Shown: positions 4,281-20,777 of the stretch, piece by piece
How positions within the stretch are numbered: the first letter of the stretch is position 1
How the letters are laid out: each line of letters opens with the position of its first letter
NCBI GenBank assembly: GCA_041176025.1
Contig: JBEDDY010000166.1
Coordinates: 1-29,899 of the forward strand
DNA length: 29,899 nt
From: Actinomycetota bacterium
GTDB taxonomy: Bacteria > Actinomycetota > Acidimicrobiia > Acidimicrobiales > Ilumatobacteraceae
Direction: 5' to 3'
The notes under the pieces: model-generated
Told to the model about the DNA's origin: nothing
The model's database searches: none
What the model saw: the letters and a program-made list of their open reading frames with translations, nothing else
Position numbers and translations under genes: made by a program

Positions 4281-4906
4281 GTCGGTTCGGTCGCGACAGG
4301 GGCCCAGTTCCTGCCGTCGAAACGCCTGATCACACGTGCGGGAGCACCCACTGCCACGCTGAAATCGGGAATGTCATGCGTGACGACGGAGTTGGCCCCG
4401 ACGACCACGTGACGTCCGATGGTCACACCCGGGAGAACGACGGTCCCGAACCCGAGCCAGGAACCGTCGCCGATCCTGACGGGACGCTCCGGCTGGGTCT
4501 GTGTCGATATGGGACGCGAGACATCCTCGTACCCGTGGTTCTGGTCCGTGATGTACACGTTGTGACCGGTCCACACGTCGTCACCGATCTCGATCGAGAA
4601 ATGACCGACGATTCCGCTCCCCCTGCCGATCAGGCACCTGTCACCGATCGACACCACACGGTCGGAGATGCACTTCTGGCCGGGGACCATCCCCGCGGAG
4701 AGCGCAACGTGCGGGCCGATCATCGTGTGCTCACCGATGTGGATGTAGGACTCGTTGAAAATCGTCGTGACCGGCCACATGATGATGCTCCGGTGACCGA
4801 AGGAACCGAACCGGCGGCCCCGTTCGTCATCGGGACCGATGGCGGCCCAGGCATTCAGGGATTCTGTCGCTCGTGCCCACAACAGCCCCAGACGACGCCT
4901 CAACAT
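4277..4906 (-). CDS. Hexapeptide-repeat (left-handed beta-helix) acyltransferase
   Basis: Repeats IHIGEHTMIG, VSIGDRCLIG, IEIGDDVWTG, VRIGDGSWLG, VTIGRHVVVGANSVV; ITDQNH; VAVGAPARVIR. Confidence 0.9.
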   Translation of the reverse strand: MLRRRLGLLWARATESLNAWAAIGPDDERGRRFGSFGHRSIIMWPVTTIFNESYIHIGEHTMIGPHVALSAGMVPGQKCISDRVVSIGDRCLIGRGSGIVGHFSIEIGDDVWTGHNVYITDQNHGYEDVSRPISTQTQPERPVRIGDGSWLGFGTVVLPGVTIGRHVVVGANSVVTHDIPDFSVAVGAPARVIRRFDGRNWAPVATEPT

Positions 4907-4912
4907 GGAACC

Positions 4913-4918
4913 ACGCTA
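4913..4918 (-). promoter_or_regulatory. -10 element TAGCGT, leaderless acyltransferase transcript
   Basis: TANNNT hexamer 6 nt upstream of ATG 4906; no Shine-Dalgarno. Confidence 0.6.
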
Positions 4919-4941
4919 CCGAGCCGGTCGTCAGCGGAAAG

Positions 4942-4947
4942 TACGGT
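4942..4947 (+). promoter_or_regulatory. -10 element TACGGT, leaderless carboxylesterase transcript
   Basis: TANNNT hexamer 6 nt upstream of ATG 4954; no Shine-Dalgarno. Confidence 0.6.
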
Positions 4948-4953
4948 GTGGCC

Positions 4954-6375
4954 ATGACAACAGCAGTCGAAGCACCCACCGGTCACTACGTGGGTCTGCC
5001 CCCGAAAGACGGCATCCGCGAGTTCCGCGGCATCCGGTACGCGACTGCCGGGCGATTCGCCGAACCTGTCCAGCAGGTCGCACACCAGGGAACGGTGGTG
5101 GCCGACACGTTCGGGGGCATCGCATACCAGGTTCCGGGCTTCCTCGAACTGAGCCAGGGGATGTCAGTCGATGACATGAGCGAGGACTGCCACTTCCTCA
5201 ACATCTTCGTCCCGGATGATGCGACGCCGGAGAGCAAGCTCCCGGTTCTCTTCTGGGTCCACGGTGGTGGCTTCGTGAACGGCTCGGGGTCCGCCGAGTG
5301 GTACAGCGGCGGCAACCTCGCGCGCAGGGCTGCAGTCGTCGTCACCATCAACTACAGGCTCGGCGCATTCGGCTATCTGGGCGACCGCAACCTCGGCCTG
5401 CTCGACCAGGTGTGCGCCCTGCGCTGGGTCAGGGACAACATCGCGGCCTTCGGGGGTAATCCCGGGAACGTCACCGTCTTCGGAGAATCAGCGGGGGGTT
5501 CGGCCACGGTCTCCCTGATCGCATCCCCGATGACCACGGGTCTCATTCACCGCGCGTGGGCAATGAGCCCGAGCATCGGCCAATACAGGGACAGCGAGAC
5601 GGCGGGCGTCATCGAGCAGATGTTCCTCGAGGAACTCGGCGTCGCATCCCTCGTGAAGGCGATGGACGTTCCCGCAACGGAGATCCTCGACGCACAGACG
5701 AGGGTGTCGGCACGCCGCATCGGGGCTTCCGACAACTTCGCGCCCACGCACGGTGGGGCCGGACTCTCAGGTCACATCGTCGAAACGGCCTCCGTCAGTC
5801 CCGTGCCGCTCGCCATGGGATCCAACCGTGACGAGAGCAGGTTGTGGACCGCTTTCGATCCCGCCTTTGCCGCCAAGACGGAGGCGGACTGGACCAAGCA
5901 CCTCGATCGAATATTCGGCAGTGCCGCCGGGACCGCCCGCGCCGTCTACGAGGAGCTCAGGCCCGGCGAGTCCTACGGGCAGTTGATCACGGCCGTGAAC
6001 TCTGACGTTGCCTTCAGACAGCACGTGCGAGAGCTCGCGAACCGTCGGGACGCCGTTTCCAATCCCACTTGGGTCTACTGGTTCACGTGGGCGTCCACCG
6101 CCCTCGGCGGCCAGCTGGGCTCGTGCCATGCACTCGACATTCCGTTCGCATTCGACAATCTCGACGCCCCCAAGGTGCGCGGGCTCATCGGCCACGACGC
6201 CGACACGGGAACGTTGGCCACGGAGTTCGCAGACCACATCGTCCACTTCGCCGTCCACGGGCACGCAGCATGGGCCCAGTACGACCGCAAGAACGGGGCG
6301 ACACTGCGGATGGACCTTCGGTCAGAACTGCTGTCGCACCCCGAGAACGAGATCCATTCCTTGTTCGGCAACTAG
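4954..6375 (+). CDS. Type-B carboxylesterase/lipase (alpha/beta hydrolase)
   Basis: FRGIRYA, SEDCHFLNI, WVHGGGF (oxyanion hole), NYRLG, nucleophile elbow FGESAGG, GSNRDE (acid), CHALDIPF (His). Confidence 0.92.
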   Translation: MTTAVEAPTGHYVGLPPKDGIREFRGIRYATAGRFAEPVQQVAHQGTVVADTFGGIAYQVPGFLELSQGMSVDDMSEDCHFLNIFVPDDATPESKLPVLFWVHGGGFVNGSGSAEWYSGGNLARRAAVVVTINYRLGAFGYLGDRNLGLLDQVCALRWVRDNIAAFGGNPGNVTVFGESAGGSATVSLIASPMTTGLIHRAWAMSPSIGQYRDSETAGVIEQMFLEELGVASLVKAMDVPATEILDAQTRVSARRIGASDNFAPTHGGAGLSGHIVETASVSPVPLAMGSNRDESRLWTAFDPAFAAKTEADWTKHLDRIFGSAAGTARAVYEELRPGESYGQLITAVNSDVAFRQHVRELANRRDAVSNPTWVYWFTWASTALGGQLGSCHALDIPFAFDNLDAPKVRGLIGHDADTGTLATEFADHIVHFAVHGHAAWAQYDRKNGATLRMDLRSELLSHPENEIHSLFGN

Positions 6376-6404
6376 GACAGGTTTCACGCACTCGCACCCT
6401 GTCC
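6375..6404 (+). terminator. Possible hairpin after the esterase (GGACAGG-N16-CCTGTCC)
   Basis: Perfect 7-bp inverted repeat starting at the stop codon; long loop and no U-tract. Confidence 0.3.
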
Positions 6405-6423
6405 GACGCGCGACAGCCGCCCA

Positions 6424-6429
6424 TAGCCT
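6424..6429 (+). promoter_or_regulatory. -10 element TAGCCT, leaderless panB transcript
   Basis: TANNNT hexamer 7 nt upstream of ATG 6437. Confidence 0.6.
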
Positions 6430-6436
6430 TGGGGAT

Positions 6437-7249
6437 ATGGACCGCACCAAGATGACCGTCCCGCGCGTGCATGCATCCAAGGACTCAGGCACACCCCTCG
6501 CGATGATCACGGCGTATGACGCGCCCTTTGCTGCGATCGTGGACGAGGCCGGGGTCGACCTCATTCTCGTCGGAGACTCCGTCGGGACCGTGATGCAGGG
6601 CCAGCGAACCACCATCCCGGTCTCGATGGAGGACATGGAGTACCACGTTCGGATGGTGGCGTCGGCGCGACCGAAGGCACTGATCGTCGGCGACATGCCG
6701 TTCGGCTCGTACCAGGCAGATTCCGCCGATGCAGTCCGGAACGCCGTGCGGTTGATGAAGGCAGGGGCGGAATGCGTGAAGCTCGAGGGCGGGGTGAACG
6801 TCGCCGACCGCATCGCTGCGATCGTGAGAGCGGACATTCCCGTGATGGGACACATCGGCCTGACACCGCAGAGCTACCACCGGATGGGTGGCAACCGCAT
6901 CCAGGGTCGCAACAGCGGCGACACTGCCGGCTCGAGAGAGAGACTCATCGAGGACGCCCACTCTGTCGAGCAGGCCGGTGCGTTCGCCCTCGTCATCGAG
7001 GGCGTGCCGGCAGGACTCGCGGCAGAGATCACCGAGAAGGTTTCCGTACCCACCATCGGGATCGGCGCCGGCCCGTCATGCAACGGCCAGGTTCTCGTCC
7101 TTCATGACGTCCTCGGGCTCTCCCCGCGCAAGCTCTCGTTTGCCAAGCCGTACGCGCGACTGCACGAGGCGTCCATCGCCGCGGTGCGCGAGTACGCGGC
7201 GGAAGTGCGCAACCGGACATGGCCGGACGAGGCCCACAGCTTCGACTGA
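6437..7249 (+). CDS. panB: 3-methyl-2-oxobutanoate hydroxymethyltransferase
   Basis: MITAYDA, ILVGDS, VGDMPFGSY, VKLEGG, GHIGLTPQS, TIGIGAG, GQVLVLHDVLG. Confidence 0.97.
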   Translation: MDRTKMTVPRVHASKDSGTPLAMITAYDAPFAAIVDEAGVDLILVGDSVGTVMQGQRTTIPVSMEDMEYHVRMVASARPKALIVGDMPFGSYQADSADAVRNAVRLMKAGAECVKLEGGVNVADRIAAIVRADIPVMGHIGLTPQSYHRMGGNRIQGRNSGDTAGSRERLIEDAHSVEQAGAFALVIEGVPAGLAAEITEKVSVPTIGIGAGPSCNGQVLVLHDVLGLSPRKLSFAKPYARLHEASIAAVREYAAEVRNRTWPDEAHSFD

Positions 7250-7251
7250 AC

Positions 7252-8091
7252 ATGCAGGTCTTCCACGACGCCGCTTCCATGCGTCGTTTCTCGCGCGAAA
7301 CCAAGCTAACCGGAGGGAGCATTGCCTTCGTGCCGACAATGGGGGCACTCCATGCCGGGCACATGGAACTGGTCCGCCGGGCACACCTTCTCGCAGACAC
7401 GGTCGTGCTGTCCATCTTCGTGAACCCCATGCAATTCAACGTTCGGAGCGATTTCGACAGGTACCCGAGGGATTTCCGTGAGGACTCGCGTGTCGCCGAG
7501 GAAGCCCGGGTGTCGGTCATCTATGCGCCGTCACCTGAGCAGATGTACCCGCCGGGCTTCGACACCACGGTCCATGTCGAGCGCACGGCGACCCCACTCG
7601 AGGGTGCGGGTCGGCCGGGGCATTTCGACGGCGTCGCAACCGTCGTCACGAAACTGTTCAACGCGGTGCAGCCGGATTTCGCGTTGTTCGGCCGGAAGGA
7701 CCACCAGCAGCTGGCAGTCGTCACCCGCATGGCAACCGACCTCGACATGGGCATCACCATCGTCGGGGTGGACACGGTCAGGGAACCGGACGGACTTGCG
7801 CTGTCGAGCCGGAACGTGCGCCTGACCCCGGCACAGCGCGGACAGGCGCCCGCGATTCACCGCGCACTCACCGAGGCGCGCGACATGCTGGGGCGCGGGT
7901 CCAGCCCCGATGACGCGCGGGCTCACTTCGCCGGTCGACTGGCAACCGTCGACGGGGCGCGCGTTGAATACGTCTCGGTCGCCGATGCACAGTCCCTTGA
8001 GGAGCTCTCTGTCGTGACGGGTCCAGCGGTCATCAGTTGCGCCGTCTGGTTCGGCGATGTCCGCCTCATCGACAATCTCCCCGTGCCATGA
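7252..8091 (+). CDS. panC: Pantoate--beta-alanine ligase
   Basis: FVPTMGALHAGH (HIGH-like), SIFVNPMQF, RPGHFDGVATVVTKLF, FGRKDHQQ, REPDGLALSSRN, RLIDN. Confidence 0.97.
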   Translation: MQVFHDAASMRRFSRETKLTGGSIAFVPTMGALHAGHMELVRRAHLLADTVVLSIFVNPMQFNVRSDFDRYPRDFREDSRVAEEARVSVIYAPSPEQMYPPGFDTTVHVERTATPLEGAGRPGHFDGVATVVTKLFNAVQPDFALFGRKDHQQLAVVTRMATDLDMGITIVGVDTVREPDGLALSSRNVRLTPAQRGQAPAIHRALTEARDMLGRGSSPDDARAHFAGRLATVDGARVEYVSVADAQSLEELSVVTGPAVISCAVWFGDVRLIDNLPVP

Positions 8092-9536
8092 ACATCCTGT
8101 CGGCCCTTCGGCCCCAGCCGGGTGACAGACGAGCGAGTCGACGGGAGAAAAGAGAGGAAAGCAGGCACACGTGGCCCCAGTCACTCTGGAGGGACACGAA
8201 CCGGCGGTTCTTCTTCCAGTCCCCGTCCGTCGACCTCGATGCCGACGTGTTGATCGTCGGTGCAGGATTCAGCGGTCTGTGGACCGCCGTGCACCTGAAG
8301 AAGTCGGACCCGGGACTGAACGTCGTGATCATCGATGCACAACAACCTGGTTTCGGTGCGAGCGGGCGCAACGGGGGTTGGTGCTCCGCACTTGTCCCCA
8401 CTCCTCCGGAGGACATCGCGGCGGGAACGTCCCTCGAGGCAGCGGTCGCCCTCCAGCACAGGATGTTCTCGGTCGTGGACGAGATCGGTTCGTTCGTCTC
8501 GGAACGGGGGATCGAGTGCGGCTGGGCGAAGGGAGGGACCCTGACCGTTGCCACCAACGCCGCCCATGGTGAGCGACTGCGGGCGGAAATCGACCACCTT
8601 CGCACCTACGGGTTCTCCGAGGATGACCTCAGGTGGCTTGATGCGGACGAACTTGCGCGACGAATCACGGTTCCCGGTGCGTTGGGCGCGACGTTCACCC
8701 CACATTGCGCAGCCGTCAATCCTTACAGGCTTCTCGACGGACTCGTCCAGTTCGCGCTCGACAACGGGGTGCGGATGTTCGGCGCCACCAACGTCTTCCG
8801 GATCGGCAACGGCTATGCCGAGGCACGCGGCGAGAACGGTCTCGTCTTCGTCACCAGCAGACACACGGTCGTTGCAACTGAGGCGTACACCGCAAGGCTC
8901 CGCGGGCACAAGAGGCGCGTCGTTCCCCTGTACTCCTACGTCATCGCGACCGAACCCCTGCCCATGTCGACCTGGGAACAGATCGGTTGGTCGGACCGCG
9001 AGACCGTGGCCGACGGACGCAACATGGTCACGTACGCCCAGCGGACGGCGGACGGGCGCATCGTCTTCGGTGGACGGGGTGCTCCGTACAAGTTCGGAAG
9101 CGACATCCATTCGGACCATGACACCTCCGGGAACGTGCACGCGAAGATCATCGAGACGATGCACGAGATGTTCCCGCAGACGAGGAACGTCCGCATTTCC
9201 CACAGGTGGGGAGGCCCGCTGGGTGTCCCCCGTGATTGGCATCCCTCCGTGACAACGGACCCGGCGACGGGAGCCATCCACGTGGGTGGTTTCGTCGGCG
9301 ACGGCGTCGCGCTCAGCTACCTGGCAGGCCAGGTGGCGGCCGCGAGAATCACGGGAAGCAACACCGAACTGCTGGACCTCCCCATCAACGACCACGGTTC
9401 GCGCAGGTGGGAGCCGGAGCCGTTCAGATGGCTCGGGATCAACGCGGGACTGATGGCGACACGGCTCGCCGACCGCATCGAGAGAAGGACCGGACGACAG
9501 TCGCGGGTGCTCAACGCGCTCATGAAGCTCTTCTGA
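8088..9536 (+). CDS. FAD-dependent oxidoreductase, DAO superfamily (PuuB/OrdL-like amine or polyamine oxidase)
   Basis: ADVLIVGAGFSGLWTA (GxGxxG), GASGRNGGW, VVATEAY, IATEPL, RIVFGGRG, HRWGGPLG, EPEPFRWLG. ATGA overlap with the panC stop. Confidence 0.88.
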   Translation: MNILSALRPQPGDRRASRREKREESRHTWPQSLWRDTNRRFFFQSPSVDLDADVLIVGAGFSGLWTAVHLKKSDPGLNVVIIDAQQPGFGASGRNGGWCSALVPTPPEDIAAGTSLEAAVALQHRMFSVVDEIGSFVSERGIECGWAKGGTLTVATNAAHGERLRAEIDHLRTYGFSEDDLRWLDADELARRITVPGALGATFTPHCAAVNPYRLLDGLVQFALDNGVRMFGATNVFRIGNGYAEARGENGLVFVTSRHTVVATEAYTARLRGHKRRVVPLYSYVIATEPLPMSTWEQIGWSDRETVADGRNMVTYAQRTADGRIVFGGRGAPYKFGSDIHSDHDTSGNVHAKIIETMHEMFPQTRNVRISHRWGGPLGVPRDWHPSVTTDPATGAIHVGGFVGDGVALSYLAGQVAAARITGSNTELLDLPINDHGSRRWEPEPFRWLGINAGLMATRLADRIERRTGRQSRVLNALMKLF

Positions 9537-11021
9537 TCAACGGTGCAGGCCGGCGTCGGTCTGATGAACGCGGAGACGCACGGTGTACCCCGAGTCACCG
9601 CTGAGGATGCCCGACCGGGAGAACAGACGGCCCGACTGCCAGTTGGACAGACCGAGCTCAGGCCTGAGCAGAGCGAACTGACCGTCGACCCAACGGGTGA
9701 ACCCGTCGCCGACGAAGGGTGCATTGCACAGTGACCAGACGGTGTCATGGTCGTTCCGGTCCTCGGAGACGCACGAGACCACGAACAACGGGCTGTGAGC
9801 ATTGAAGAGCGCAGAGGCCTCGACGACATCGTCGACGAGAACAACATGGAACTCGGGATTCTCCTCCCACTCGAACTCGTGGCCCAGCATCCCCTCTGTC
9901 TCCACGGTCACACGGGGCTCGGTGTGGGGACCGTCGGCACGCCTGACCTCGATCTGTTCGGCGGGACCGCAGAGGTCGAACGCGTCACCGACTGCGTGCA
10001 CCCGTGCCCTCAGCCCCCTTCGTGCAGCGGCCGCGTCGGCACTGGCCATGACCACGGGCAGGAGCTCCCGCGCACGCGAACGCACGACGGCGACGACATT
10101 GAGCGTGTTGCAGACCTTGCGGTCGAGCGAATGCTCGACCACCCGGGACAACCGGTCGGGGTCGGCGCTCTCCCCCACGATCATCCATGCGCCGCCGGTG
10201 CCGTGGAGACTGACCGGGATGCCGCTTTGCTGCGCCATGGCACCCAGCTCGGCGACGGCCGGTCCGGAACCGCGGGCAACTGCGAGGGACAGCCGACTGT
10301 CGGAGAAGAGCGCCCACCCCGCTGCGTGTTCCGGCGAGTCGAGGAGCCCGACACAGCCCTCGGGCAGACCGGAAGCCGCGATCGCCGGCGCCACGACGTG
10401 TTCCATCAAGGCGCGAGCGGTTCCGAGCGCGTCGCTTCCGATGCGGAACACGACTGTGTTTCCCCCGCGCAGGACCCCGGTCGCATCGGCGAAGACGTTC
10501 GGGCGACCCTCGAAGACGAAACCGATGACGCCCAGCGGGGCACGTTCCTCGGTCACCGTCCATCCGTCATGCTCGATCGACGGACCGACGCCACCTTCCT
10601 GTGCACTGTCGCGCCACATGCGGAGCGCCTCGACCATGCCCTGCCGCATGGAGTCCGAGAGCACGAGCCGCGTGGTGCTGCGTCCGCGCGCCGCAGCCGA
10701 TTCCACATCGGCTCTGTTGGCCCGTGCGACGGCCCCGAACACCCGGTCATCGGCAAGGAGACCCGCCGCCACCTCGAAGAACCGTGTGACCTGATCCTGT
10801 CCGACAAACGACATGGCGGAGAACGCGTCGACTGCTGCATCCATCGACGCACCCACCAGTTCAACGACACGGGAAGGTATGCGCCGAAGATCACCCGACG
10901 AGGCGACACCCAGCACCTTGTCCCCCGGTTCGAGCGCGGAGGCAAAGTCGGCATCAACCGTGAGAACCGTCGCCCCGACAAGGACACGGTCACCGGCCCG
11001 GAGCAGGTCATCGTTGGTCAC
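9537..11021 (-). CDS. Divergent gamma-glutamyl phosphate reductase (ProA)-like aldehyde dehydrogenase
   Basis: PLGVIGFVFEGRPNV (ProA PLGVIGIIYESRPNV), LAVARGS, catalytic Cys in KVCNTLN, TRWVDG...ELGLS. Carries an N-terminal extension. I did not assign the symbol proA because of the divergence. Confidence 0.75.
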   Translation of the reverse strand: MTNDDLLRAGDRVLVGATVLTVDADFASALEPGDKVLGVASSGDLRRIPSRVVELVGASMDAAVDAFSAMSFVGQDQVTRFFEVAAGLLADDRVFGAVARANRADVESAAARGRSTTRLVLSDSMRQGMVEALRMWRDSAQEGGVGPSIEHDGWTVTEERAPLGVIGFVFEGRPNVFADATGVLRGGNTVVFRIGSDALGTARALMEHVVAPAIAASGLPEGCVGLLDSPEHAAGWALFSDSRLSLAVARGSGPAVAELGAMAQQSGIPVSLHGTGGAWMIVGESADPDRLSRVVEHSLDRKVCNTLNVVAVVRSRARELLPVVMASADAAAARRGLRARVHAVGDAFDLCGPAEQIEVRRADGPHTEPRVTVETEGMLGHEFEWEENPEFHVVLVDDVVEASALFNAHSPLFVVSCVSEDRNDHDTVWSLCNAPFVGDGFTRWVDGQFALLRPELGLSNWQSGRLFSRSGILSGDSGYTVRLRVHQTDAGLHR

Positions 11022-12504: not shown

Positions 12505-13854
12505 TCAGGCACCCAGCGAGTCGATTGCGTCCGCGAACACCTGCGTGTGCAGGTCCACGTCTGCCTCCCCGTGGGACGGGCAGAACAACGCCATGTTGTG
12601 GAACGGTGTGAGGAGTATCCCCCGGTTCAGCGCGAACAGGTGCATGTACGAATCCAGTTCGGCGTCCGATGCCGCCGCCGCGTCCGCTCCGTTGCGGGGA
12701 ACGGGACAGAACCAGTACTCGGCGCGGGCGCCGAGCTGCTGGACATGCCACTGCAGGCCCTTGTTCTCGTACGCGGCGCGGACACCCTCGGTCCATCTCG
12801 TCGCCAACGGCACCATCACCGCAAAATCCTCCACGCGAAGATTCGAGGAGAGCGTTGCCCGGATCGCCGCCATGGCGAGGGCGTTGCCGGTGAGTGTGCC
12901 GCCGACACCGGACACGTCCACCGAGTCCCCCGCCATCAATGACTCGAGTCGGTGCGCCACTTCGCCGGACATCCCGTAGACGGCGGCGGGCATTCCCCCT
13001 GCTATCGGTTTGCCGATGACGAACATGTCCGGATCTAGGTTCCATTCGCGGGTGCAACCGCCCGGCCCCGCACAGATGGTGTGGGTCTCGTCGATCACGA
13101 GCAGAACCCCGTGGCGTCTGGTCACGTCCCGTACCGCATCGAGATAGCCGTCATCGGGCAGGACTATCCCGATGTTCGTGAGGGCGGGCTCCATCAGCAG
13201 ACATGCGACGTCGCCGTGCGACAGTGCCGCTTCCAGCGCATCGATGTCGTTGAACGGAACGACCCGTGTCGTCGTTGCCACATTGAAAGCCGGCCCGATG
13301 GCACCCGGCCGCGGCACGACACGGCCGCTCCGGTCGAGCACCGCGAGTGTCTCGTCCACGGTGCCGTGGTAGCACCAATCCATGACGGCGATCTTCGGAC
13401 GTCCCGTGATGGCACGCGCAAAACGGAGAACGAACCGGTTCGCATCGGTTGCGGTCATGGCGAACTGCCACTTCGGCAGGCCGAAACGGCGCGTCAGCTC
13501 ACCGGCCACCCAGATCGCGTCCTCGTTCGGCAACATCGTGGTGATGCCCCGTGATGCGCGGTCGTGCAGCGCATCTGCCACACCCGTCAGCCCGTGACCG
13601 GTCATGGCCCCGGTGTCACCGAGACAGAAATCAACGTATTCGTGCCCGTCGACATCAGTGAAGCGGGCCCCACGGGCATCCTCGAAGAACAGCGGGAACT
13701 CCCCCGGCCACCTTGCCATCCATGGCATGGGCACGCCCGACAACAGGCCCTCCCGGGCGCTACGGGCCAGCCCCGCCGAACGCGGATGGAGACGGCCGAA
13801 GAGGGAGAGCTCCTCGGCATGACGGGATGCGAGAGTGGCGCGGTTGATGTTCAT
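12505..13854 (-). CDS. Class III PLP aminotransferase, HemL/GSA-aminomutase-like paralog
   Basis: DVDGHEYVDF, CYHG, LMEP, LLVIDETHT, PLP-lysine GKPIAGGMP, GGTLTGN. ATG 13854 start; TATGGT lies 14 nt upstream. Confidence 0.88.
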   Translation of the reverse strand: MNINRATLASRHAEELSLFGRLHPRSAGLARSAREGLLSGVPMPWMARWPGEFPLFFEDARGARFTDVDGHEYVDFCLGDTGAMTGHGLTGVADALHDRASRGITTMLPNEDAIWVAGELTRRFGLPKWQFAMTATDANRFVLRFARAITGRPKIAVMDWCYHGTVDETLAVLDRSGRVVPRPGAIGPAFNVATTTRVVPFNDIDALEAALSHGDVACLLMEPALTNIGIVLPDDGYLDAVRDVTRRHGVLLVIDETHTICAGPGGCTREWNLDPDMFVIGKPIAGGMPAAVYGMSGEVAHRLESLMAGDSVDVSGVGGTLTGNALAMAAIRATLSSNLRVEDFAVMVPLATRWTEGVRAAYENKGLQWHVQQLGARAEYWFCPVPRNGADAAAASDAELDSYMHLFALNRGILLTPFHNMALFCPSHGEADVDLHTQVFADAIDSLGA

Positions 13855-13937
13855 GAGCTCGACGTTCCACCATAGGTTTCGTGGACGGACGGGCCGAGGA
13901 TTCCCAATGAAGTCAGGCCTCTCGGCTTTACATTTCG

Positions 13938-13943
13938 TACACT
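13938..13943 (+). promoter_or_regulatory. -10 element TACACT, leaderless start of the carbamoylase/Xdh operon
   Basis: TANNNT hexamer 7 nt upstream of GTG 13951. Confidence 0.65.
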
Positions 13944-13950
13944 TTGACCC

Positions 13951-15207
13951 GTGAGCACCGACCGGCACCCCTTGGACCTCCGGGTCAACGGAGAGCGGCT
14001 GATGGCGCGTCTCGATGCTCTTGCCGAGGTGGGGGCCATTCCTGGTGGCGGATGTGCGCGTCTCGCCCTGACCGACGATGACAAGACAGGCCGTGACCTC
14101 GTGGTGTCCTGGATGAGGGACCTGGGGCTCGACGTCACCGTCGACGTCGTCGGCAACGTGGTGGGGACATGGAACGTGGGCACCGGGTCTCCCGTGATGA
14201 CCGGCTCACACATCGACACTGTCCGGACCGGCGGCAGGTACGACGGCAACTACGGGGTGCTCGCGGGGCTCGAGGTCATCCAGACCGTCCAGGAGTCAGG
14301 TTTCGTCCCGCTTCGGCCGCTCGCCGTCGCGTTCTTCACGAACGAGGAAGGGGCTCGTTTTGCCCCCGACATGATGGGCTCACTCGCCTTTGTCGGCGGG
14401 AGCCCCGTCGAGACGGTTCTCGACACCGTCGGCATCGACGGCGCCCGTGTGGGGGACGAACTGGAGCGAATCGGGTATTCCGGCTCCATTCCGTGCCCCC
14501 AGATCGCGCCGCATGCCTTCGTCGAGCTGCACATCGAGCAGGGACCGGTGCTCGAACAGCAGGACACGACGATCGGTGTCGTCACGGGTGTGCAGGGAAT
14601 CAGCTGGCAGGAAGTGACCATCACGGGACAGTCGAACCACGCGGGCACGACCCCCATGAACCTCCGTCACGATCCCGCCTACGCGGCCTCGAACATCGCG
14701 GTGTTCCTCCGCGAACTTGCACGCGGGTTCGGCGGCCACCAGGTGTGCACGGTCGGGAAGATCGACATGCACCCGAATCTGATCAACGTTGTCCCGGCAT
14801 CGGCCACCCTCACCCTGGACGTCCGGAACACCGACGAGGAACTGCTCAGGGACGCCGAACGGCAGATTGCCGCCCATCTGCGGAAACTTGCCGCCGACGA
14901 GGGCGTCTCGATCACCACCAGGACACTCGCGAGATTCGAGCCCGTCGACTTCGACTCCTCGGTGATCTCGCTCATCGAGGGCGTCGCATCGGACCACGGG
15001 TTGAGCCACATGCGGATGCCGAGCGGCGCGGGTCACGATGCACAGATGCTGGCGCGGGTCTGCCCGGCCGCAATGATCTTCGTCCCCAGCCACAAGGGCA
15101 TCAGCCACAACCCAGCCGAGCACACCGACGCCCACCAACTCGTCGCAGGCTGCAACGTCCTGCTCCACGCTCTTCTCTCACTCACCCACCCGGAGGTAGG
15201 CCAATGA
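13951..15207 (+). CDS. M20 Zn-dependent N-carbamoyl-amino acid hydrolase (beta-ureidopropionase/L-carbamoylase/allantoate amidohydrolase family)
   Basis: GSHIDTV, GRYDGNYGV, FTNEEGARF, ELHIEQGP, GQSNHAGTTPM, SGAGHDA, GISHNPAE. Confidence 0.93.
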   Translation: MSTDRHPLDLRVNGERLMARLDALAEVGAIPGGGCARLALTDDDKTGRDLVVSWMRDLGLDVTVDVVGNVVGTWNVGTGSPVMTGSHIDTVRTGGRYDGNYGVLAGLEVIQTVQESGFVPLRPLAVAFFTNEEGARFAPDMMGSLAFVGGSPVETVLDTVGIDGARVGDELERIGYSGSIPCPQIAPHAFVELHIEQGPVLEQQDTTIGVVTGVQGISWQEVTITGQSNHAGTTPMNLRHDPAYAASNIAVFLRELARGFGGHQVCTVGKIDMHPNLINVVPASATLTLDVRNTDEELLRDAERQIAAHLRKLAADEGVSITTRTLARFEPVDFDSSVISLIEGVASDHGLSHMRMPSGAGHDAQMLARVCPAAMIFVPSHKGISHNPAEHTDAHQLVAGCNVLLHALLSLTHPEVGQ

Positions 15208-16127
15208 GTCGCATCATCACCGTCGGCGCGGCACAGCTCGGGCCGATCCAGAAGGAGCATTCACGCGAGAGCGTGGTGCAACGCTTGATCTCCCTCCTCC
15301 GGCAGGGGGCATCAGCCGGTTGCGACCTGGTGGTGTTCCCCGAGCTGGCGCTGACCACCTTCTTTCCCCGTTGGTTCGTCGAGGACATCACCACTGCTGA
15401 CCACTGGTACGAGCGGGAGATGCCGTCACCAGCCACGCAGCCACTGTTCGACACGGCGCGGGACCTGGGTGTCGGCTTCTGCCTCGGGTACGCCGAACTC
15501 ACCGATGACGGCCACAGGTTCAACACACAGATCCTGGTGGAAAAGGACGGGAGTGTCGTCGCCAGGTACCGCAAGGTCCACATTCCCGGCCACGAGCATC
15601 ACGAGCCGGACCGGCCTTTCCAGCACGCCGAGCGCTATTACTTCGAGCCGTCCATGGAGGGATTCGGGGTGTGGAAAGCATTCGGTGGCCGCATCGGAAT
15701 GATGATCTGCAACGACCGGAGGTGGCCCGAGACATACCGTGTGATGGGCCTGAAGGGCGTGGAGATGATCCTCTGCGGCTACAACACGCCGATCCACTAC
15801 GTTCCCGACCCGAGCCAGGACATCCTGCAGGGTTTCCACAACGCGCTCGTGATGCAGTCGGGTGCGTACCAGAACGGCACGTGGGTGGTCGGCGTCGCGA
15901 AGGGCGGTGTCGAGGAAGGTGTCGACAGCCTGGGGCAGTCCATGATCGTCGCGCCGTCCGGCCAGATCGTCGCGCAGGCACTGACCACCGATGACGAACT
16001 GATTTTCGCACGTTGCGACCTTGACTGGTGCGCACGGTACAAGGGCACCCTCTTCGATTTCGACCGCTACCGCCGTCCCGAGGTCTACGGCAACATCACC
16101 GCACAACGCGGAGTCGTCCTGGACTGA
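15204..16127 (+). CDS. N-carbamoyl-D-amino acid amidohydrolase (nitrilase superfamily)
   Basis: VVFPELALTTFFPRW, YRKVHIPGH, ICNDRRWPE (Glu-Lys-Cys triad), GYNTP, QSGAYQN, all typical of D-carbamoylase. ATGA overlap with the previous gene. Confidence 0.88.
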   Translation: MSRIITVGAAQLGPIQKEHSRESVVQRLISLLRQGASAGCDLVVFPELALTTFFPRWFVEDITTADHWYEREMPSPATQPLFDTARDLGVGFCLGYAELTDDGHRFNTQILVEKDGSVVARYRKVHIPGHEHHEPDRPFQHAERYYFEPSMEGFGVWKAFGGRIGMMICNDRRWPETYRVMGLKGVEMILCGYNTPIHYVPDPSQDILQGFHNALVMQSGAYQNGTWVVGVAKGGVEEGVDSLGQSMIVAPSGQIVAQALTTDDELIFARCDLDWCARYKGTLFDFDRYRRPEVYGNITAQRGVVLD

Positions 16128-16128
16128 C

Positions 16129-17190
16129 ATGTCGACCGTCACGAATGGCATGGTGTGTTCGCATCACCACCTGTACTCTGCACTCGCGCGGGGGATGCCC
16201 GCTCCTCCACTGACCCCGACATCGTTCCTCTCGGTGCTCGAACAGGTGTGGTGGCGACTCGACACGGCGCTTGATCTCGACATCATCTACTGGTCCGCGG
16301 CCCTGGGTGCGGCCGAGGCATTGATGAACGGCACGACGGCGGTCATCGACCACCACGAGTCGCCCAATGCCATCGAGGGCAGTCTCGACGTCATCAGGGA
16401 TGCCTGCGACATGATCGGTGTCCGTTCGAACCTGTCCTACGGCGTGACGGACCGGTGGAATTCGGGGGCACTCTCCCCGACCGTCGAACCATCGGGGCGC
16501 ATGACCGACGCCGCCCGACGGGGCCTGCGCGAGAACGAAAGATTCCTGCGCAGCGGTGGGCGCGGGATGGTCGGCGTCCATGCGGCCTTCACGTGCACCG
16601 ACGAGACACTCGAGCACGCAGCGGGACTCGCAGCGGAACTCGAGACAGGGGTCCACATACACGTGGCAGAGGGACCGGAAGACCGCGATGCGGGCCGGAG
16701 GCTCGAGCACCTCTCCGGCGACGATTGGCTGCTCGTCCACTGCGTCCATCTCGACAGGCCGCTCAGGGGAACGATCGCCCACAACCCCCGGTCCAACATG
16801 AACAACTCCGTCGGGTATGCACACCCGGCGCGGCGTGCGAACACCGTAGTTCTCGGCACCGACGGCATCGGTGCAGACATGCTCGAGGAGGCGCGTCTCG
16901 CATACGTCCGGCTGCGCGAGTCCGACGTCACTGCATCCCCCGACACCGCATGGTCCTGGCTGTCGAACGGCGAGAAGTTCTTCCCCGAGGTTGCCAACGA
17001 CTCGGTGGAATGGTCCTACGACCACTCGGAGAGCGCCTGGCATGTCGCCTTCACACCGGGCGTGCGTGCGGTCAACGTCTCCGTCGACGGAGTTCAGGTG
17101 GTTCGCGACGGACAACCGCTCCATTTCGACCTGCAGGAGATCCGCACGAAAGCGGCCGAGGCCGCCACCCGACTTCATTCCCGATTGTGA
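16129..17190 (+). CDS. SsnA-like metal-dependent amidohydrolase (compact form)
   Basis: GMVCSHHHLYSALARG (SsnA-type HxH), GTTAVIDHH, GVHAAF, HIHVAE, VHCVH, HNPRSNMNNSVG, LGTDG. Confidence 0.82.
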   Translation: MSTVTNGMVCSHHHLYSALARGMPAPPLTPTSFLSVLEQVWWRLDTALDLDIIYWSAALGAAEALMNGTTAVIDHHESPNAIEGSLDVIRDACDMIGVRSNLSYGVTDRWNSGALSPTVEPSGRMTDAARRGLRENERFLRSGGRGMVGVHAAFTCTDETLEHAAGLAAELETGVHIHVAEGPEDRDAGRRLEHLSGDDWLLVHCVHLDRPLRGTIAHNPRSNMNNSVGYAHPARRANTVVLGTDGIGADMLEEARLAYVRLRESDVTASPDTAWSWLSNGEKFFPEVANDSVEWSYDHSESAWHVAFTPGVRAVNVSVDGVQVVRDGQPLHFDLQEIRTKAAEAATRLHSRL

Positions 17191-17197
17191 GCCACGC

Positions 17198-18034
17198 ATG
17201 CCAGTTCTGACACCCACCACCATCTCCGACGCTGCGGCCTCGCTCGCCGCGCATCCCGAGGCACAGATTCTCAGCGGCGGCACCGACTTCATGGTCGAGG
17301 TCAACTTCAACCACCGCAAGCCCTCGACAGTCGTCGCCCTCGGCGGGATCGAGGAACTGCGCCGTTGGAGCAACGACGGACACTCCGTTTTCATCGGCGC
17401 CGGGGTCACTTGGCAGGACATCGAGACGGGACCCATCGCGTCAGTCCTCCCCGCACTGGCCGAGGCGGCGCGAACGGTCGGTTCTCCGCAGATCCGTGCC
17501 GCCGGCACCATCGGCGGCAACCTCGGCACGTGCTCACCCGCAGGCGACGGCCTGCCGGTCCTCTCCGCACTCGAGTGCACCGTCCACCTGGTCTCGCCGC
17601 GCGGGGAACGCAGTCTTGCCTTCACGGAGTTCATGGTCGGACCGAAGCGCAACGCCAGGGCCGCGGACGAGATCATCACCGGCGTCACGGTGCCCGTGCC
17701 GAACGGCTACCAGGGCTACGCAAAGGTCGGCGTCCGCAACGCGATGGTGATCTCCATTGCGAGCGCGTGTCTCGTCATCCACGACAACAAGGTCCGCGTC
17801 GGGTTGGGCTCGGTGGGTCCCACGATCATCCGTCCGACGGCAGCAGAGCAATGGCTCGACCAACTGCAGGCGGTACCAGGGCGAGCCGTGTCCCCGGCAG
17901 TTGCCTCAGAGTTCGGGCGCCGCGTTGCTGATGAAGCCCGTCCCATCGACGACCACAGGTCGACCGCCGCGTACCGCCGTCACGCAATTTCCGTCATCAC
18001 ACGCCGACTTCTCGAACGGAGCGCACAGTCATGA
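17198..18034 (+). CDS. Xanthine dehydrogenase family FAD-binding subunit
   Basis: SGGTDF, IGAGVT, VGSPQIRAAGTIGGN, SPAGD, PIDDHRSTAAYR. Confidence 0.92.
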   Translation: MPVLTPTTISDAAASLAAHPEAQILSGGTDFMVEVNFNHRKPSTVVALGGIEELRRWSNDGHSVFIGAGVTWQDIETGPIASVLPALAEAARTVGSPQIRAAGTIGGNLGTCSPAGDGLPVLSALECTVHLVSPRGERSLAFTEFMVGPKRNARAADEIITGVTVPVPNGYQGYAKVGVRNAMVISIASACLVIHDNKVRVGLGSVGPTIIRPTAAEQWLDQLQAVPGRAVSPAVASEFGRRVADEARPIDDHRSTAAYRRHAISVITRRLLERSAQS

Positions 18035-18519
18035 GCAACAACGAGATCTACACACTCACCGTGAACGGGGAGACACGGGAGGTCAGGGACTCCTGGGTCG
18101 GCGAGAGCCTTCTCTACGTGCTGCGCGAACGACTGGGTCTCCCGGGCTCGAAGGGTGCCTGCGAACAGGGCGAATGCGGCAGTTGCACCGTCGTCATCGA
18201 CAACCGGGCGGTCTGCAGCTGTCTCGTCCTCGCGGCGTCCGCAGTCGGCAGGGACATCGCAACCGTCGAGGGTCTGAACCCCGATGGCTCCCTGACCGAC
18301 GTCCAGCAGGCCTTCATCGACGAGGGTGCCGTCCAGTGCGGCTTCTGCACACCCGGGCTCGTGGTGGCCGTGCACGGGCTTCTCGAACGCAATCCCCGAC
18401 CGAACGAACTCGAGGTGAAGGAAGCCCTGTCGGGGAACATCTGCCGGTGCACGGGGTACGGGCGCATCTTCGCGGCGGTCGACAAGGTGGTCGCGGACCG
18501 GAACGGGGGCACACGATGA
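18031..18519 (+). CDS. Xanthine dehydrogenase family 2x[2Fe-2S] subunit
   Basis: GACEQGECGSC, VCSC, QCGFCTPG, GNICRCTGY. Confidence 0.95.
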   Translation: MSNNEIYTLTVNGETREVRDSWVGESLLYVLRERLGLPGSKGACEQGECGSCTVVIDNRAVCSCLVLAASAVGRDIATVEGLNPDGSLTDVQQAFIDEGAVQCGFCTPGLVVAVHGLLERNPRPNELEVKEALSGNICRCTGYGRIFAAVDKVVADRNGGTR

Positions 18520-20777
18520 GTTCGGTCACCACACGCAGGGACACACTCGGCGCGAACGCGTTGCGACCTGACGGAGCAGCGAAGGTCCGTGGTGAGTTCG
18601 GCTTCACGGGCGATCTGTGGCATGACGGCATGCTCTGGGGTGCGACACTGCGTTCACCCCACCCCCATGCCCGCATCGTCTCCATCGACACCACACCGGC
18701 GCTGCGCATTCCCGGCGTCACTGCCGTCGTGACCGCCGAGGACGTCCCGGGACAGATGAACTACGGCCTCATCGCGGAGGACCAACCTGTTTTCGCGTCG
18801 GACATCGTGCGCTACATGGGCGAGCCCGTCGCTGCGGTGGCCGCCGACCACCCGGAGACCTGTCGTCGTGCGCTCGCCGCGATCGCCGTCGAATACGAGG
18901 TGCTGACCCCACTGTGGGACCCCGCGAAGGCGATCGACGGGAGTGCAGAACCGATCCATCCCGACGGGAACGTCTTCAGGACACAGAAGATCATCCATGG
19001 CGACCCGTCCGTGCGTGGCGACGTCACGGTGGAGGGTGAGTACGTCATCGGAATGCAGGACCAGGCCTTCCTCGGCACGGAAGCCGCTCTTGCAATCCCC
19101 GATCACGACGGCGGTGGCGTCGAGGTCTACGTGGCGACCCAGTGGCTGCACGAGGACCAGAAGCAAATGGCGAAATGCCTCGGGCTCCCGGTCGACAAGG
19201 TGCGACTGACACTCGGCGGAGTGGGTGGTGCATTCGGTGGGCGCGAGGACCTCAGCCTGCAGGTTCACACGGCCCTTCTCGCGCTCCACACCGGGCGACC
19301 GGTGAAGATGCAGTACGGCCGCGAGGAGTCCTTCTTCGGCCACATCCACAGGCACCCCGCGACGGTGTGGATGAGGCACCATGCACGACGGGACGGCACC
19401 ATCGTGAACATCGAGGCACGGTTCGTGTTCGACGGAGGCGCCTACGCCTCCACATCGTCAGCGGTGCTGCTGAACGGGATCACCCACACACAGGGTCCCT
19501 ACAAGTGCCCCAACGCCTCGGTGACCGGATGGGCCGTGCGCACCAACAATCCCCCGTGCGGCGCCATGCGGGGTTTCGGCGTCGTGCAGGCGTGTTACGC
19601 ACACGAGAGCCAGATGGACAAGCTGGCGGCCGCGCTCGGCATGTCACCCGTCGACATCAGACTGAAGAACGCCATGGAAACCGGGGACACCCTCATCACG
19701 GGACAGGTGATGGACAGTGTCGCACCGGTGACGGAATGCATCAGGCAGACCGACGCCATCCCGTTGCCGGCCGAGATGGCCGCGGATCCCGATGAACTCG
19801 AGTTGCCGGGCGGATCGGGACTCACCAGCGACCGACGCCACATCAAGCGCGGCGTCGGCTGGGGTGTGAGCATCAAGAACATCATGTACAGCGAGGGTTT
19901 CGACGATTACTCCACGGCGCGCTGCAGGCTGGAGGACGGCGTGGTCACCCTCAAGTTCGCAACGAGTGAGGTCGGTCAGGGATTCGTCACGCTGGCACCG
20001 CAGATCGCACGCACCGTCATCGGTGTCGACGACGTCATCATCGACACGATCGACACCGGTGTGGGCTCGGCGGGATCGACGTCGGCCTCGCGACAGACAT
20101 GGATGAGCGGCGGCGCTGTCAAGGGCGCATGCATGCTCGTGCAACAGAGAATCCTGGAGCACGTTGCCCGGACCCATTCGTTGGACGTTGCCACGCTGTC
20201 CATCGAGGGCACCGAGGTCGTCAACTCGGCGGGGACACTGCGCATCAACGTGGTCGAGGCCACGCGAGGCGTGTCGTTCGACGAGACATTCGAGCACCAC
20301 CACAGGTCCACGGAGGACCTCGACGAGAACGGCCAGGGCAACTGTCATGTGGCCTTCGCGTTCGTCGCACACCGCGCTGTCGTCGACGTGGACGAGGAAC
20401 TCGGTCTCGTGAAGGTCGTCCAGATCGCCACCGCACAGGACGTGGGGGTCGCGCTGAACCCGCTGTCCGTCATCGGCCAGATCGAGGGAGGCATCGCACA
20501 GGGTCTCGGCCTCGCAGTGATGGAGGAGATCATCGTGACGGAGGGTCGCGTGCGCAACCCCAGTTTCACCGATTACCTGCTGCCCACCACGCTCGACGCC
20601 CCGGTGGTCGAGGCGCGGATGATCGAGCAGTACGAACCGCTGTCACCACTGGGAGCCAAGGGTGTCGGGGAGCCGCCGTGCATCTCCGTGACACCCGCCA
20701 TCGCGAATGCCATCCGCAACGCGACGGGAAAGGTCATTGACAGGGTCCCGGTGCGTCCGCAGGACATCTGCCTCTAG
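18516..20777 (+). CDS. Xanthine dehydrogenase family molybdopterin-binding subunit (PucD-like)
   Basis: LRSPHPHARI, GGAFGGRE, DGGAY, AMRGFG, SEVGQG, QIEGGIAQG, catalytic Glu in GAKGVGEPP. Confidence 0.93.
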   Translation: MSSVTTRRDTLGANALRPDGAAKVRGEFGFTGDLWHDGMLWGATLRSPHPHARIVSIDTTPALRIPGVTAVVTAEDVPGQMNYGLIAEDQPVFASDIVRYMGEPVAAVAADHPETCRRALAAIAVEYEVLTPLWDPAKAIDGSAEPIHPDGNVFRTQKIIHGDPSVRGDVTVEGEYVIGMQDQAFLGTEAALAIPDHDGGGVEVYVATQWLHEDQKQMAKCLGLPVDKVRLTLGGVGGAFGGREDLSLQVHTALLALHTGRPVKMQYGREESFFGHIHRHPATVWMRHHARRDGTIVNIEARFVFDGGAYASTSSAVLLNGITHTQGPYKCPNASVTGWAVRTNNPPCGAMRGFGVVQACYAHESQMDKLAAALGMSPVDIRLKNAMETGDTLITGQVMDSVAPVTECIRQTDAIPLPAEMAADPDELELPGGSGLTSDRRHIKRGVGWGVSIKNIMYSEGFDDYSTARCRLEDGVVTLKFATSEVGQGFVTLAPQIARTVIGVDDVIIDTIDTGVGSAGSTSASRQTWMSGGAVKGACMLVQQRILEHVARTHSLDVATLSIEGTEVVNSAGTLRINVVEATRGVSFDETFEHHHRSTEDLDENGQGNCHVAFAFVAHRAVVDVDEELGLVKVVQIATAQDVGVALNPLSVIGQIEGGIAQGLGLAVMEEIIVTEGRVRNPSFTDYLLPTTLDAPVVEARMIEQYEPLSPLGAKGVGEPPCISVTPAIANAIRNATGKVIDRVPVRPQDICL

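Follow-up and report, generated by a model that had tools for sequence, protein, structure and literature searches.

The window analysed here is a DNA stretch of 29,899 nucleotides from an Actinomycetota bacterium: contig C166 (JBEDDY010000166.1) of the metagenome-assembled genome (MAG) G000 (GCA_041176025.1), which comprises 1.87 Mb on 267 contigs and is 89.8% complete. Its genes panB and panC are arranged head to tail with a gene for a flavin adenine dinucleotide (FAD)-dependent oxidoreductase (hereafter, the oxidase), and a first-pass annotation of this DNA had proposed that the oxidase supplies PanC with a beta-alanine precursor where PanD is missing. With moderate confidence, we favour a different reading, in which the oxidase is an amine oxidoreductase of the DAO superfamily that stands after panC as an inherited neighbour within a compacted syntenic block, and not as the replacement of PanD in this family. 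The earlier interpretation is partly supported: its preconditions were found, while its core inference lacks support. The oxidase occurs independently of panC, is kept in genomes without panBC, was lost twice while panBC was kept, is separated from panC by an interrupting gene in related genera, and is accompanied by neither PuuA nor PauA. The oxidase-to-beta-alanine hypothesis no longer explains the absence of PanD.

The panB-panC-oxidase locus and its syntenic block

The three genes occupy the following positions in the window:

6437-7249, plus strand: panB, 3-methyl-2-oxobutanoate hydroxymethyltransferase (PF02548, 350 bits; TIGR00222, 291.6 bits, cut-off 207.55)
7252-8091, plus strand: panC, pantoate-beta-alanine ligase (PF02569, 330 bits; TIGR00018, 311.6 bits, cut-off 212.75)
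8088-9536, plus strand: DAO-family FAD-dependent oxidoreductase of 482 aa (PF01266, 197 bits)

Both PanB and PanC exceed the cut-offs of equivalog-level models. The panB frame runs from the ATG at 6437 to a stop codon at 7247-7249 and is separated by 2 nt from panC, which starts with the ATG at 7252 and ends with a stop codon at 8089-8091. The ATG of the oxidase at 8088 overlaps this stop codon as ATGA. Upstream of a conserved N-terminal WPxSLWRD motif, the oxidase frame offers ATG 8088 or TTG 8037 as a start and no further in-frame ATG, GTG or TTG, so the overlap with panC is real either way. The identical ATGA junction occurs in G023, the closest congener, whose oxidase is 80% identical. The gene order given in the first-pass annotation, with a PuuB-like FAD oxidoreductase following panB-panC through this overlap, is thus borne out by the coordinates, the PF01266 match and the homology to PuuB. 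At its other end (9536), the oxidase touches, with zero spacing, the stop codon of a ProA-like gene (9537-11021) that converges on it. A scan of positions 6200-9800 for promoters and terminators found none, such a scan being poorly informative for a high-GC actinobacterium.

These genes form part of a syntenic block, which contains, in order, ABC exporters, a hypothetical gene, an esterase, panB, panC, the oxidase, the ProA-like gene, a metallo-beta-lactamase (MBL) hydrolase, TauE, an aminotransferase, an M20 amidase, a CN-hydrolase, an SsnA-like amidohydrolase and Xdh. The same gene order was recovered in many genera when the window proteins were searched by tblastn on 40 family loci, and in all loci of the genus (21/21). 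The functions gathered in the block are heterogeneous and mutually unrelated, and they include an M1 peptidase, a divergent ProA and purine catabolism genes. Sister families lack the block: panD comes after panC there, and no block gene follows.

In the genomes G097, G120, G127 and G091, panC and the oxidase stand ~0.9 kb apart, and the interval is occupied by an Rce1-like/DUF2510 gene on the strand opposite to both of them. This Rce1-like CAAX protease gene was located as follows:

L060:8654-9493 (-)
L062:8508-9326 (-)
L058:9545-10423 (+)
L064:9021-9908 (-)

An N-terminal DUF2510 domain is carried by the protease in three of the four genomes checked, and the gene is missing from the streamlined genus to which G000 belongs (genomes of 1.3-2.0 Mb). 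Larger relatives additionally have M1 aminopeptidase and CAP-domain genes between the oxidase and the ProA-like gene. With an opposite-strand gene interrupting the pair in larger relatives, the arrangement is not an ancestral operon. The loss of the intervening genes (Rce1-like protease, M1 aminopeptidase and CAP-domain) in the 1.3-2.0 Mb genomes would have brought panC and the oxidase into contact, and this contact may subsequently have become the ATGA overlap in the G000 species and its closest relative. In G000, panC and the oxidase are probably co-transcribed, as a product of compaction rather than of shared function. The case is a caution for guilt-by-association reasoning, as streamlined genomes can gain start/stop overlaps by compaction of inherited blocks.

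Absence of PanD and independence of the oxidase from panBC

The comparison covered 91 genomes of the family (probably Ilumatobacteraceae, to judge from the annotated names of close protein homologs), one of which (G129) is unpublished and carries no claim alone. The oxidase was called present at E 1e-60, and the pyridoxal phosphate (PLP) enzyme discussed below at E 1e-40. The incompleteness of MAGs affects all presence/absence calls and, since related genomes are non-independent, the p-values given here are descriptive only.

A search with the PanD profile (PF02261) gave no match in the window, in agreement with the first-pass annotation, or in the whole G000 MAG (89.8% complete), while the same search was positive in eight control genomes; this result agrees with the genome-wide absence on which the earlier proposal depended. 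PanD was likewise not found in the 24 congeners (0/25 genus genomes, G000 included) or in 86 of the 91 family genomes, several closed genomes among them, and it was found in the other five. In total, 67 of the 91 sampled genomes possess panC without PanD.

The adjacency of panC and the oxidase, whose conservation had been suggested as a check, is indeed conserved in relatives. Ten genomes of the genus have the oxidase after panC, and one more has it there across a contig break. A single-copy homolog (40-51% identity) occurs in 68/91 family genomes. Its distance to panC is at most 2.5 kb in 27 of these genomes, which belong to many genera and have the homolog downstream on the panC strand; ten of the 27 show direct adjacency. 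The absence of PanD is therefore far wider than tight coupling of panC and the oxidase, which counts in favour of an inherited neighbour.

The distribution of the two genes across the family points in the same direction. Among the 91 genomes, 55 have both panC and the oxidase, 17 only panC, 13 only the oxidase and 6 neither (Fisher p = 0.56); the oxidase is present in 76% of panC-positive and 68% of panC-negative genomes, so that the two are statistically independent. The 13 panC-less genomes that keep an oxidase homolog, out of 19, represent at least nine genera. In ten such loci that were fetched (L076-L085), the oxidase occupies the same slot of the block with panBC missing, and in at least four of the ten it directly follows the esterase, an adjacency seen in L043, L081-L084 and L094. 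At locus L043 (GCA_041181005.1, contig JBEGQL010000042.1), the oxidase is 57% identical and stands between the esterase and the ProA-like gene, and no panB-panC lies between them at this locus.

The converse case is also frequent, as 13 of the 67 genomes with panC and without PanD, from about 10 genera, have no oxidase. According to a tree of panB, panC and the ProA-like gene, the common ancestor of the genus already had the oxidase, and two losses followed, one in a nine-species clade and the other in G004, in each case with panBC kept and PanD absent. No other oxidase homolog was found in the nine-species clade at E<=1e-30, and panC there abuts the convergent ProA-like gene after the loss. 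An enzyme that has displaced PanD would be expected wherever panC occurs without PanD and would be lost along with panC; the oxidase follows neither pattern.

Outside the family, oxidase homologs were never found near panC, and their genomic contexts have no shared theme. Distant homologs (34-38% identity) adjoin an NCS1 permease, DUF1853 and HrpB, or an AlaDh-like gene. Among four homologs from sister families (42-45% identity), two lie beside a class III aminotransferase, namely at L123:9045-11835 (-) in G040 and L125:7014-9850 in G038, and in G040 a penicillin-amidase-like gene is also located next to them; the surroundings of the other two were uninformative. This aminotransferase neighbour is a possible hint at an ancestral pathway.

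Candidate routes to beta-alanine

Nearly the whole family of these abundant aquatic actinobacteria keeps panBC without PanD, which constitutes a missing-enzyme problem. A literature search on Ilumatobacter or acIV and pantothenate yielded nothing relevant.

Several observations weigh against the view of the oxidase as an inherited neighbour. In the order, PanD was found in 9 of 16 sister families and lies directly downstream of panC in 7 of these 9, and the position of the oxidase after panC corresponds to this slot; substitution at the same position is a hallmark of non-orthologous displacement. In nine other family genomes, from eight other genera, the oxidase is located directly downstream of panC with gaps of ~55-125 bp, so the adjacency is not solely a product of streamlining. 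The predicted anti-correlation with PanD was recovered as well, with the oxidase present in 1/5 PanD-positive and 67/86 (78%) PanD-negative family genomes (p = 0.014), although it is weak and uncorrected for phylogeny. In the panC-less genome G050, the oxidase copy (L082:8278-9642 (-)) has three in-frame stops within ~45 codons and is a probable pseudogene, judging by its sequence; the copy in its congener G108 is intact. Finally, a conserved aminobutyraldehyde dehydrogenase (PRK13473, 722 bits, cut-off 615) could convert 3-aminopropanal to beta-alanine.

Such findings would suit an accessory, substrate-dependent route, translationally coupled to panC in the G000 species, in which 3-aminopropanal is formed by the oxidase, from either a polyamine or 1,3-diaminopropane, and is then turned into beta-alanine for PanC by the aminoaldehyde dehydrogenase encoded on contig C49. 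This route, which we regard as unlikely, agrees with the lack of a detected PanD in G000, its genus and most of the family, with the linkage in 27 genomes and the ATGA overlap kept in G023, with the occupied panD slot and the weak anti-correlation, and with the homology of the oxidase to PuuB. The Pau pathway of Pseudomonas also leads from diaminopropane to beta-alanine. A bacterial PanD bypass proceeding from diaminopropane through 3-aminopropanal to beta-alanine has been described (Perchat et al. 2022, PMC9213253). However, the oxidase is kept, mostly intact, in the 13 panC-less genomes and is absent from 13 genomes with panC and without PanD as well as from the nine-species clade; an opposite-strand gene separates it from panC in many genera; and in no case does a homolog outside the family occur close to panC. 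The aminoaldehyde dehydrogenase shows the same conservation (70-81% identity) in PanD-positive and panC-less genomes and is thus not tied to pantothenate; for this reason, it was rejected as a panC-linked gene. It also adjoins its own omega-transaminase, a possible source of aldehyde that requires no oxidase. Moreover, G000 has no PuuA-type ligase: a tblastn search with E. coli PuuA for PuuA/PauA in this 89.8% complete genome returned one glutamine synthetase homolog (27% identity), presumably GlnA, which is not near the oxidase, and a search for the gamma-glutamyl hydrolase PuuD gave only a weak 29% match, likewise not near the oxidase.

A bolder version holds that, in PanD-less Ilumatobacteraceae, the oxidase downstream of panC represents a new type of bacterial amine oxidase, which provides an oxidative, PuuA-independent route to beta-alanine from the slot vacated by panD. 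Redundancy with a transaminase route would then explain the losses of the oxidase. We judge this version somewhat less probable than even the unlikely accessory route. If real, a beta-alanine role would add a new route to beta-alanine, and thereby to coenzyme A, in bacteria, and would be a textbook example of one gene displacing another in situ; the comparative data make this unlikely.

The dehydrogenase belongs to a cluster at G000:C49:20-4147 (L110), where an omega-aminotransferase (PRK06541, 703 bits), the convergent aminobutyraldehyde dehydrogenase, which is 70-81% identical across most of the family, and an alanine dehydrogenase are encoded. From its gene content, this cluster looks like a pyruvate-dependent module for diamine/polyamine catabolism.

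The alternative that PanD was replaced in the family by a different enzyme (the PLP enzyme, the C49 transaminase/dehydrogenase cluster or the M20 carbamoylase), or that beta-alanine is taken up, the oxidase being irrelevant in either case, has in our estimate an even chance of being correct. The first candidate is a group II PLP enzyme (G000:C83:785-2065, L049) that might act as an aspartate decarboxylase. It was found in 22/25 genus genomes, 67/91 family genomes and none of the five PanD-positive ones (p = 0.0009, uncorrected), and its best NCBIfam match is MfnA, an archaeal Tyr/Asp decarboxylase (208 bits). However, its resemblance to MfnA (88 bits) is much lower than that to sphingosine-1-phosphate lyases (3MAD, 274 bits), it occurs in 15 panC-less genomes and is absent from 15 genomes with panC and without PanD, and at order level it shows no exclusivity with PanD, as both co-occur in sister families. 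An MfnA-like decarboxylase as a PanD substitute is weakened by its lyase type, by its presence in the 15 panC-less genomes and by this co-occurrence. The enzyme of sphingosine-1-phosphate lyase (SPL) type is core to the genus, though the host is not known to make sphingolipids.

The second candidate is the omega-transaminase and aminoaldehyde dehydrogenase of contig C49, which could form beta-alanine from diaminopropane or via transamination of malonate semialdehyde. Both matches (PRK06541, 703 bits; PRK13473, 722 bits) lie past their cut-offs, and an alanine dehydrogenase is encoded alongside, but the cluster is conserved whatever the panC or PanD status of the genome.

The third candidate is the M20 carbamoylase at 13951-15207, which could serve as a beta-alanine synthase like AmaB of Rhizobium etli. 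It falls into the TIGR01879 family, which it shares with AmaB, and the Rhizobium AmaB is an experimentally shown PanD bypass (PMC7142369). A dihydropyrimidinase-like (hydantoinase) fragment is present on contig C153, but a search for a PreA-type dihydropyrimidine dehydrogenase found none, and with this combination a reductive pyrimidine route was set aside. The M20 gene is also kept in panC-less genomes and is a member of a purine-catabolic operon. No candidate beta-alanine gene tested co-varies with panC, and the high-quality genomes G094 and G096 have panC and lack PanD, the oxidase and the PLP enzyme alike.

In yeast, Fms1 together with Ald2/3 bypasses PanD, and Fms1 and the polyamine oxidases (PAO) belong to PF01593. 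With this system and with the bypasses by Dat/Ddc/ALD in Acinetobacter (PMC9213253) and AmaB in Rhizobium (PMC7142369), G000 has in common that it is PanD-less with panBC and that it encodes an aminoaldehyde dehydrogenase and an AmaB-family M20 carbamoylase. It differs from yeast in that the oxidase is a member of another flavoprotein family, PF01266; from Acinetobacter in lacking a Ddc-type decarboxylase, its only PF00282 protein being SPL-like; and from Rhizobium in that PreA was not found in G000.

Probable chemistry of the oxidase, and neighbouring genes

Sequence comparison identifies the product of 8088-9536 as an intact, single-copy, vertically inherited flavoenzyme of the DAO family (PF01266), on a branch with PuuB and the aminophosphonate oxidases. 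Its PF01266 match scores 197.2 bits (cut-off 27.9) and aligns residues 53-420 with model positions 1-353 of 353, and the glycines of its N-terminal GxGxxG (G58, G60 and G63) are invariant among 24 homologs. PF01593 (Amino_oxidase, the Fms1/PAO family) was absent among its Pfam matches at E<=0.001. The label "polyamine-oxidase family" given by the first-pass annotation is thus imprecise, the enzyme being a flavin amine oxidase of the DAO/PuuB type.

The oxidase shares 28% identity with E. coli PuuB over 393 residues (E 8e-32). As with PuuB of E. coli and PauB of Pseudomonas, it belongs to PF01266, carries a GFGASGRNGG segment after the FAD-binding GxGxxG and presumably performs the same FAD-dependent conversion of an amine to an aldehyde. 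In contrast to them, it is not located in a puu- or pau-like operon, the adjacent transporter, ligase and hydrolase being absent, and its N-terminus is longer than that of PuuB, with the conserved WPxSLWRD motif. In the DAO superfamily, an identity of 28% demonstrates homology but is of the order found between enzymes that act on different substrates (Table 1, PMC10590968).

The best curated (NCBIfam) match is TIGR03329, "putative aminophosphonate oxidoreductase" (full length, E 1e-58), above the models for L-pipecolate oxidase and ThiO. This match would suit an enzyme of the PbfD type that oxidises 2-aminoethylphosphonate (AEP) for phosphorus scavenging. PbfD enzymes convert AEP and N-methyl-AEP to phosphonoacetaldehyde, and homologs are found outside phn clusters in Terrabacteria (PMC10590968); members of this family oxidatively deaminate a 2-substituted ethylamine to an aldehyde. 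However, the match reaches 198.9 bits, one third of what the family cut-off (632.8) demands, the genome contains no phosphonatase PhnX (best TIGR01422 match 32.4 bits, cut-off 220) and no phn cluster, and phn genes are missing from the block and the window. A role in aminophosphonate oxidation is accordingly very improbable. Neither beta-alanine nor taurine was a substrate for the characterised PbfD enzymes (Zangelmi et al. 2023, PMC10590968).

An AlphaFold2 model of the oxidase (pLDDT 82, pTM 0.85) has the two-domain fold of glycine oxidase and sarcosine oxidase. The best Foldseek matches in the PDB are glycine oxidase, iminodiacetate oxidase, sarcosine oxidase beta and L-proline dehydrogenase, and nearly all of the top 50 matches at E<=1e-16 are DAO-type flavoenzymes, mostly amine or amino-acid oxidoreductases. 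To ThiO glycine oxidase, IdaA iminodiacetate oxidase and sarcosine oxidase beta (4YSH, 7CYX, 6PXS, 1VRQ), the likeness reaches Foldseek E-values of 1e-22 to 1e-20 and TM-scores by target of 0.75-0.82, and the GR2-type two-domain flavoprotein architecture is common to all; the oxidase differs from them in its low identity (16-21%) and in being ~100 residues longer. A single-sequence search of the PDB found no match at E<=1e-5, and a profile of 24 sequences found only weak ones (E ~1e-10) to L-amino acid deaminase, glycine oxidase and sarcosine oxidase. The ESM Atlas returned nothing beyond generic "FAD-dependent oxidoreductase" clusters. The clade of the oxidase is sizeable, with 825 representative clusters at E<=1e-30, and these uncharacterised enzymes have neither a solved structure nor a characterised substrate.

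Because almost all characterised relatives act in this way on small amines or amino acids, the most likely reaction of the oxidase is the conversion of a small primary or secondary amine to an imine by oxidation of its C-N bond. Hydrolysis of the imine would then give an aldehyde and ammonia or an amine, with the electrons passing to O2 or a quinone, and the enzyme may serve in nitrogen scavenging or catabolism.

The remaining members of the block considered here are:

4873-6375, plus strand: type-B carboxylesterase, upstream member of the conserved block (PF00135, 235 bits)
9537-11021, minus strand: divergent ProA-like aldehyde dehydrogenase (PRK00197, 108.8 bits, under the cut-off of 289)
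12505-13968, minus strand: class III aminotransferase of the PRK07046 type (NF005453, 646 bits, cut-off 425)
13951-15207, plus strand: amidase of the M20 hydantoinase/carbamoylase family (TIGR01879, 416 bits; NF006769, 454 bits, cut-off 452)

Against ProA models, the ProA-like gene reaches only 95-124 bits (cut-off 317), yet no second ProA homolog was found in G000 or in five other genomes of the family (four congeners and one closed genome), while a canonical ProB is present (399 bits). It occurs with or without the oxidase. Its role as an aldehyde dehydrogenase partner of the oxidase was rejected on account of this independent occurrence and because these six genomes, which contain ProB or are complete, have no ProA homolog besides it. 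From its sequence, it is probably the organism's own divergent housekeeping proA, and a highly divergent form of gamma-glutamyl phosphate reductase may be in use across the family.

The beta-ureidopropionase-family (M20) gene at 13951 and the class III aminotransferase at 12505, which the first-pass annotation had named as possible further beta-alanine sources or sinks, are present as described. The aminotransferase is kept in panC-less relatives, and the M20 amidase is the first gene of a purine/ureide catabolic operon, in which it is followed by a CN-hydrolase, an SsnA-like amidohydrolase and Xdh subunits. In the window, this co-directional run extends over 13951-20777 and comprises the M20, CN-hydrolase and SsnA-like (NF005540, 245 bits) genes and those for the FAD, 2Fe-2S and Mo subunits of Xdh. 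At least the M20 and CN-hydrolase genes show 64-97% identity across the genus and family, far above that of panC or the oxidase.

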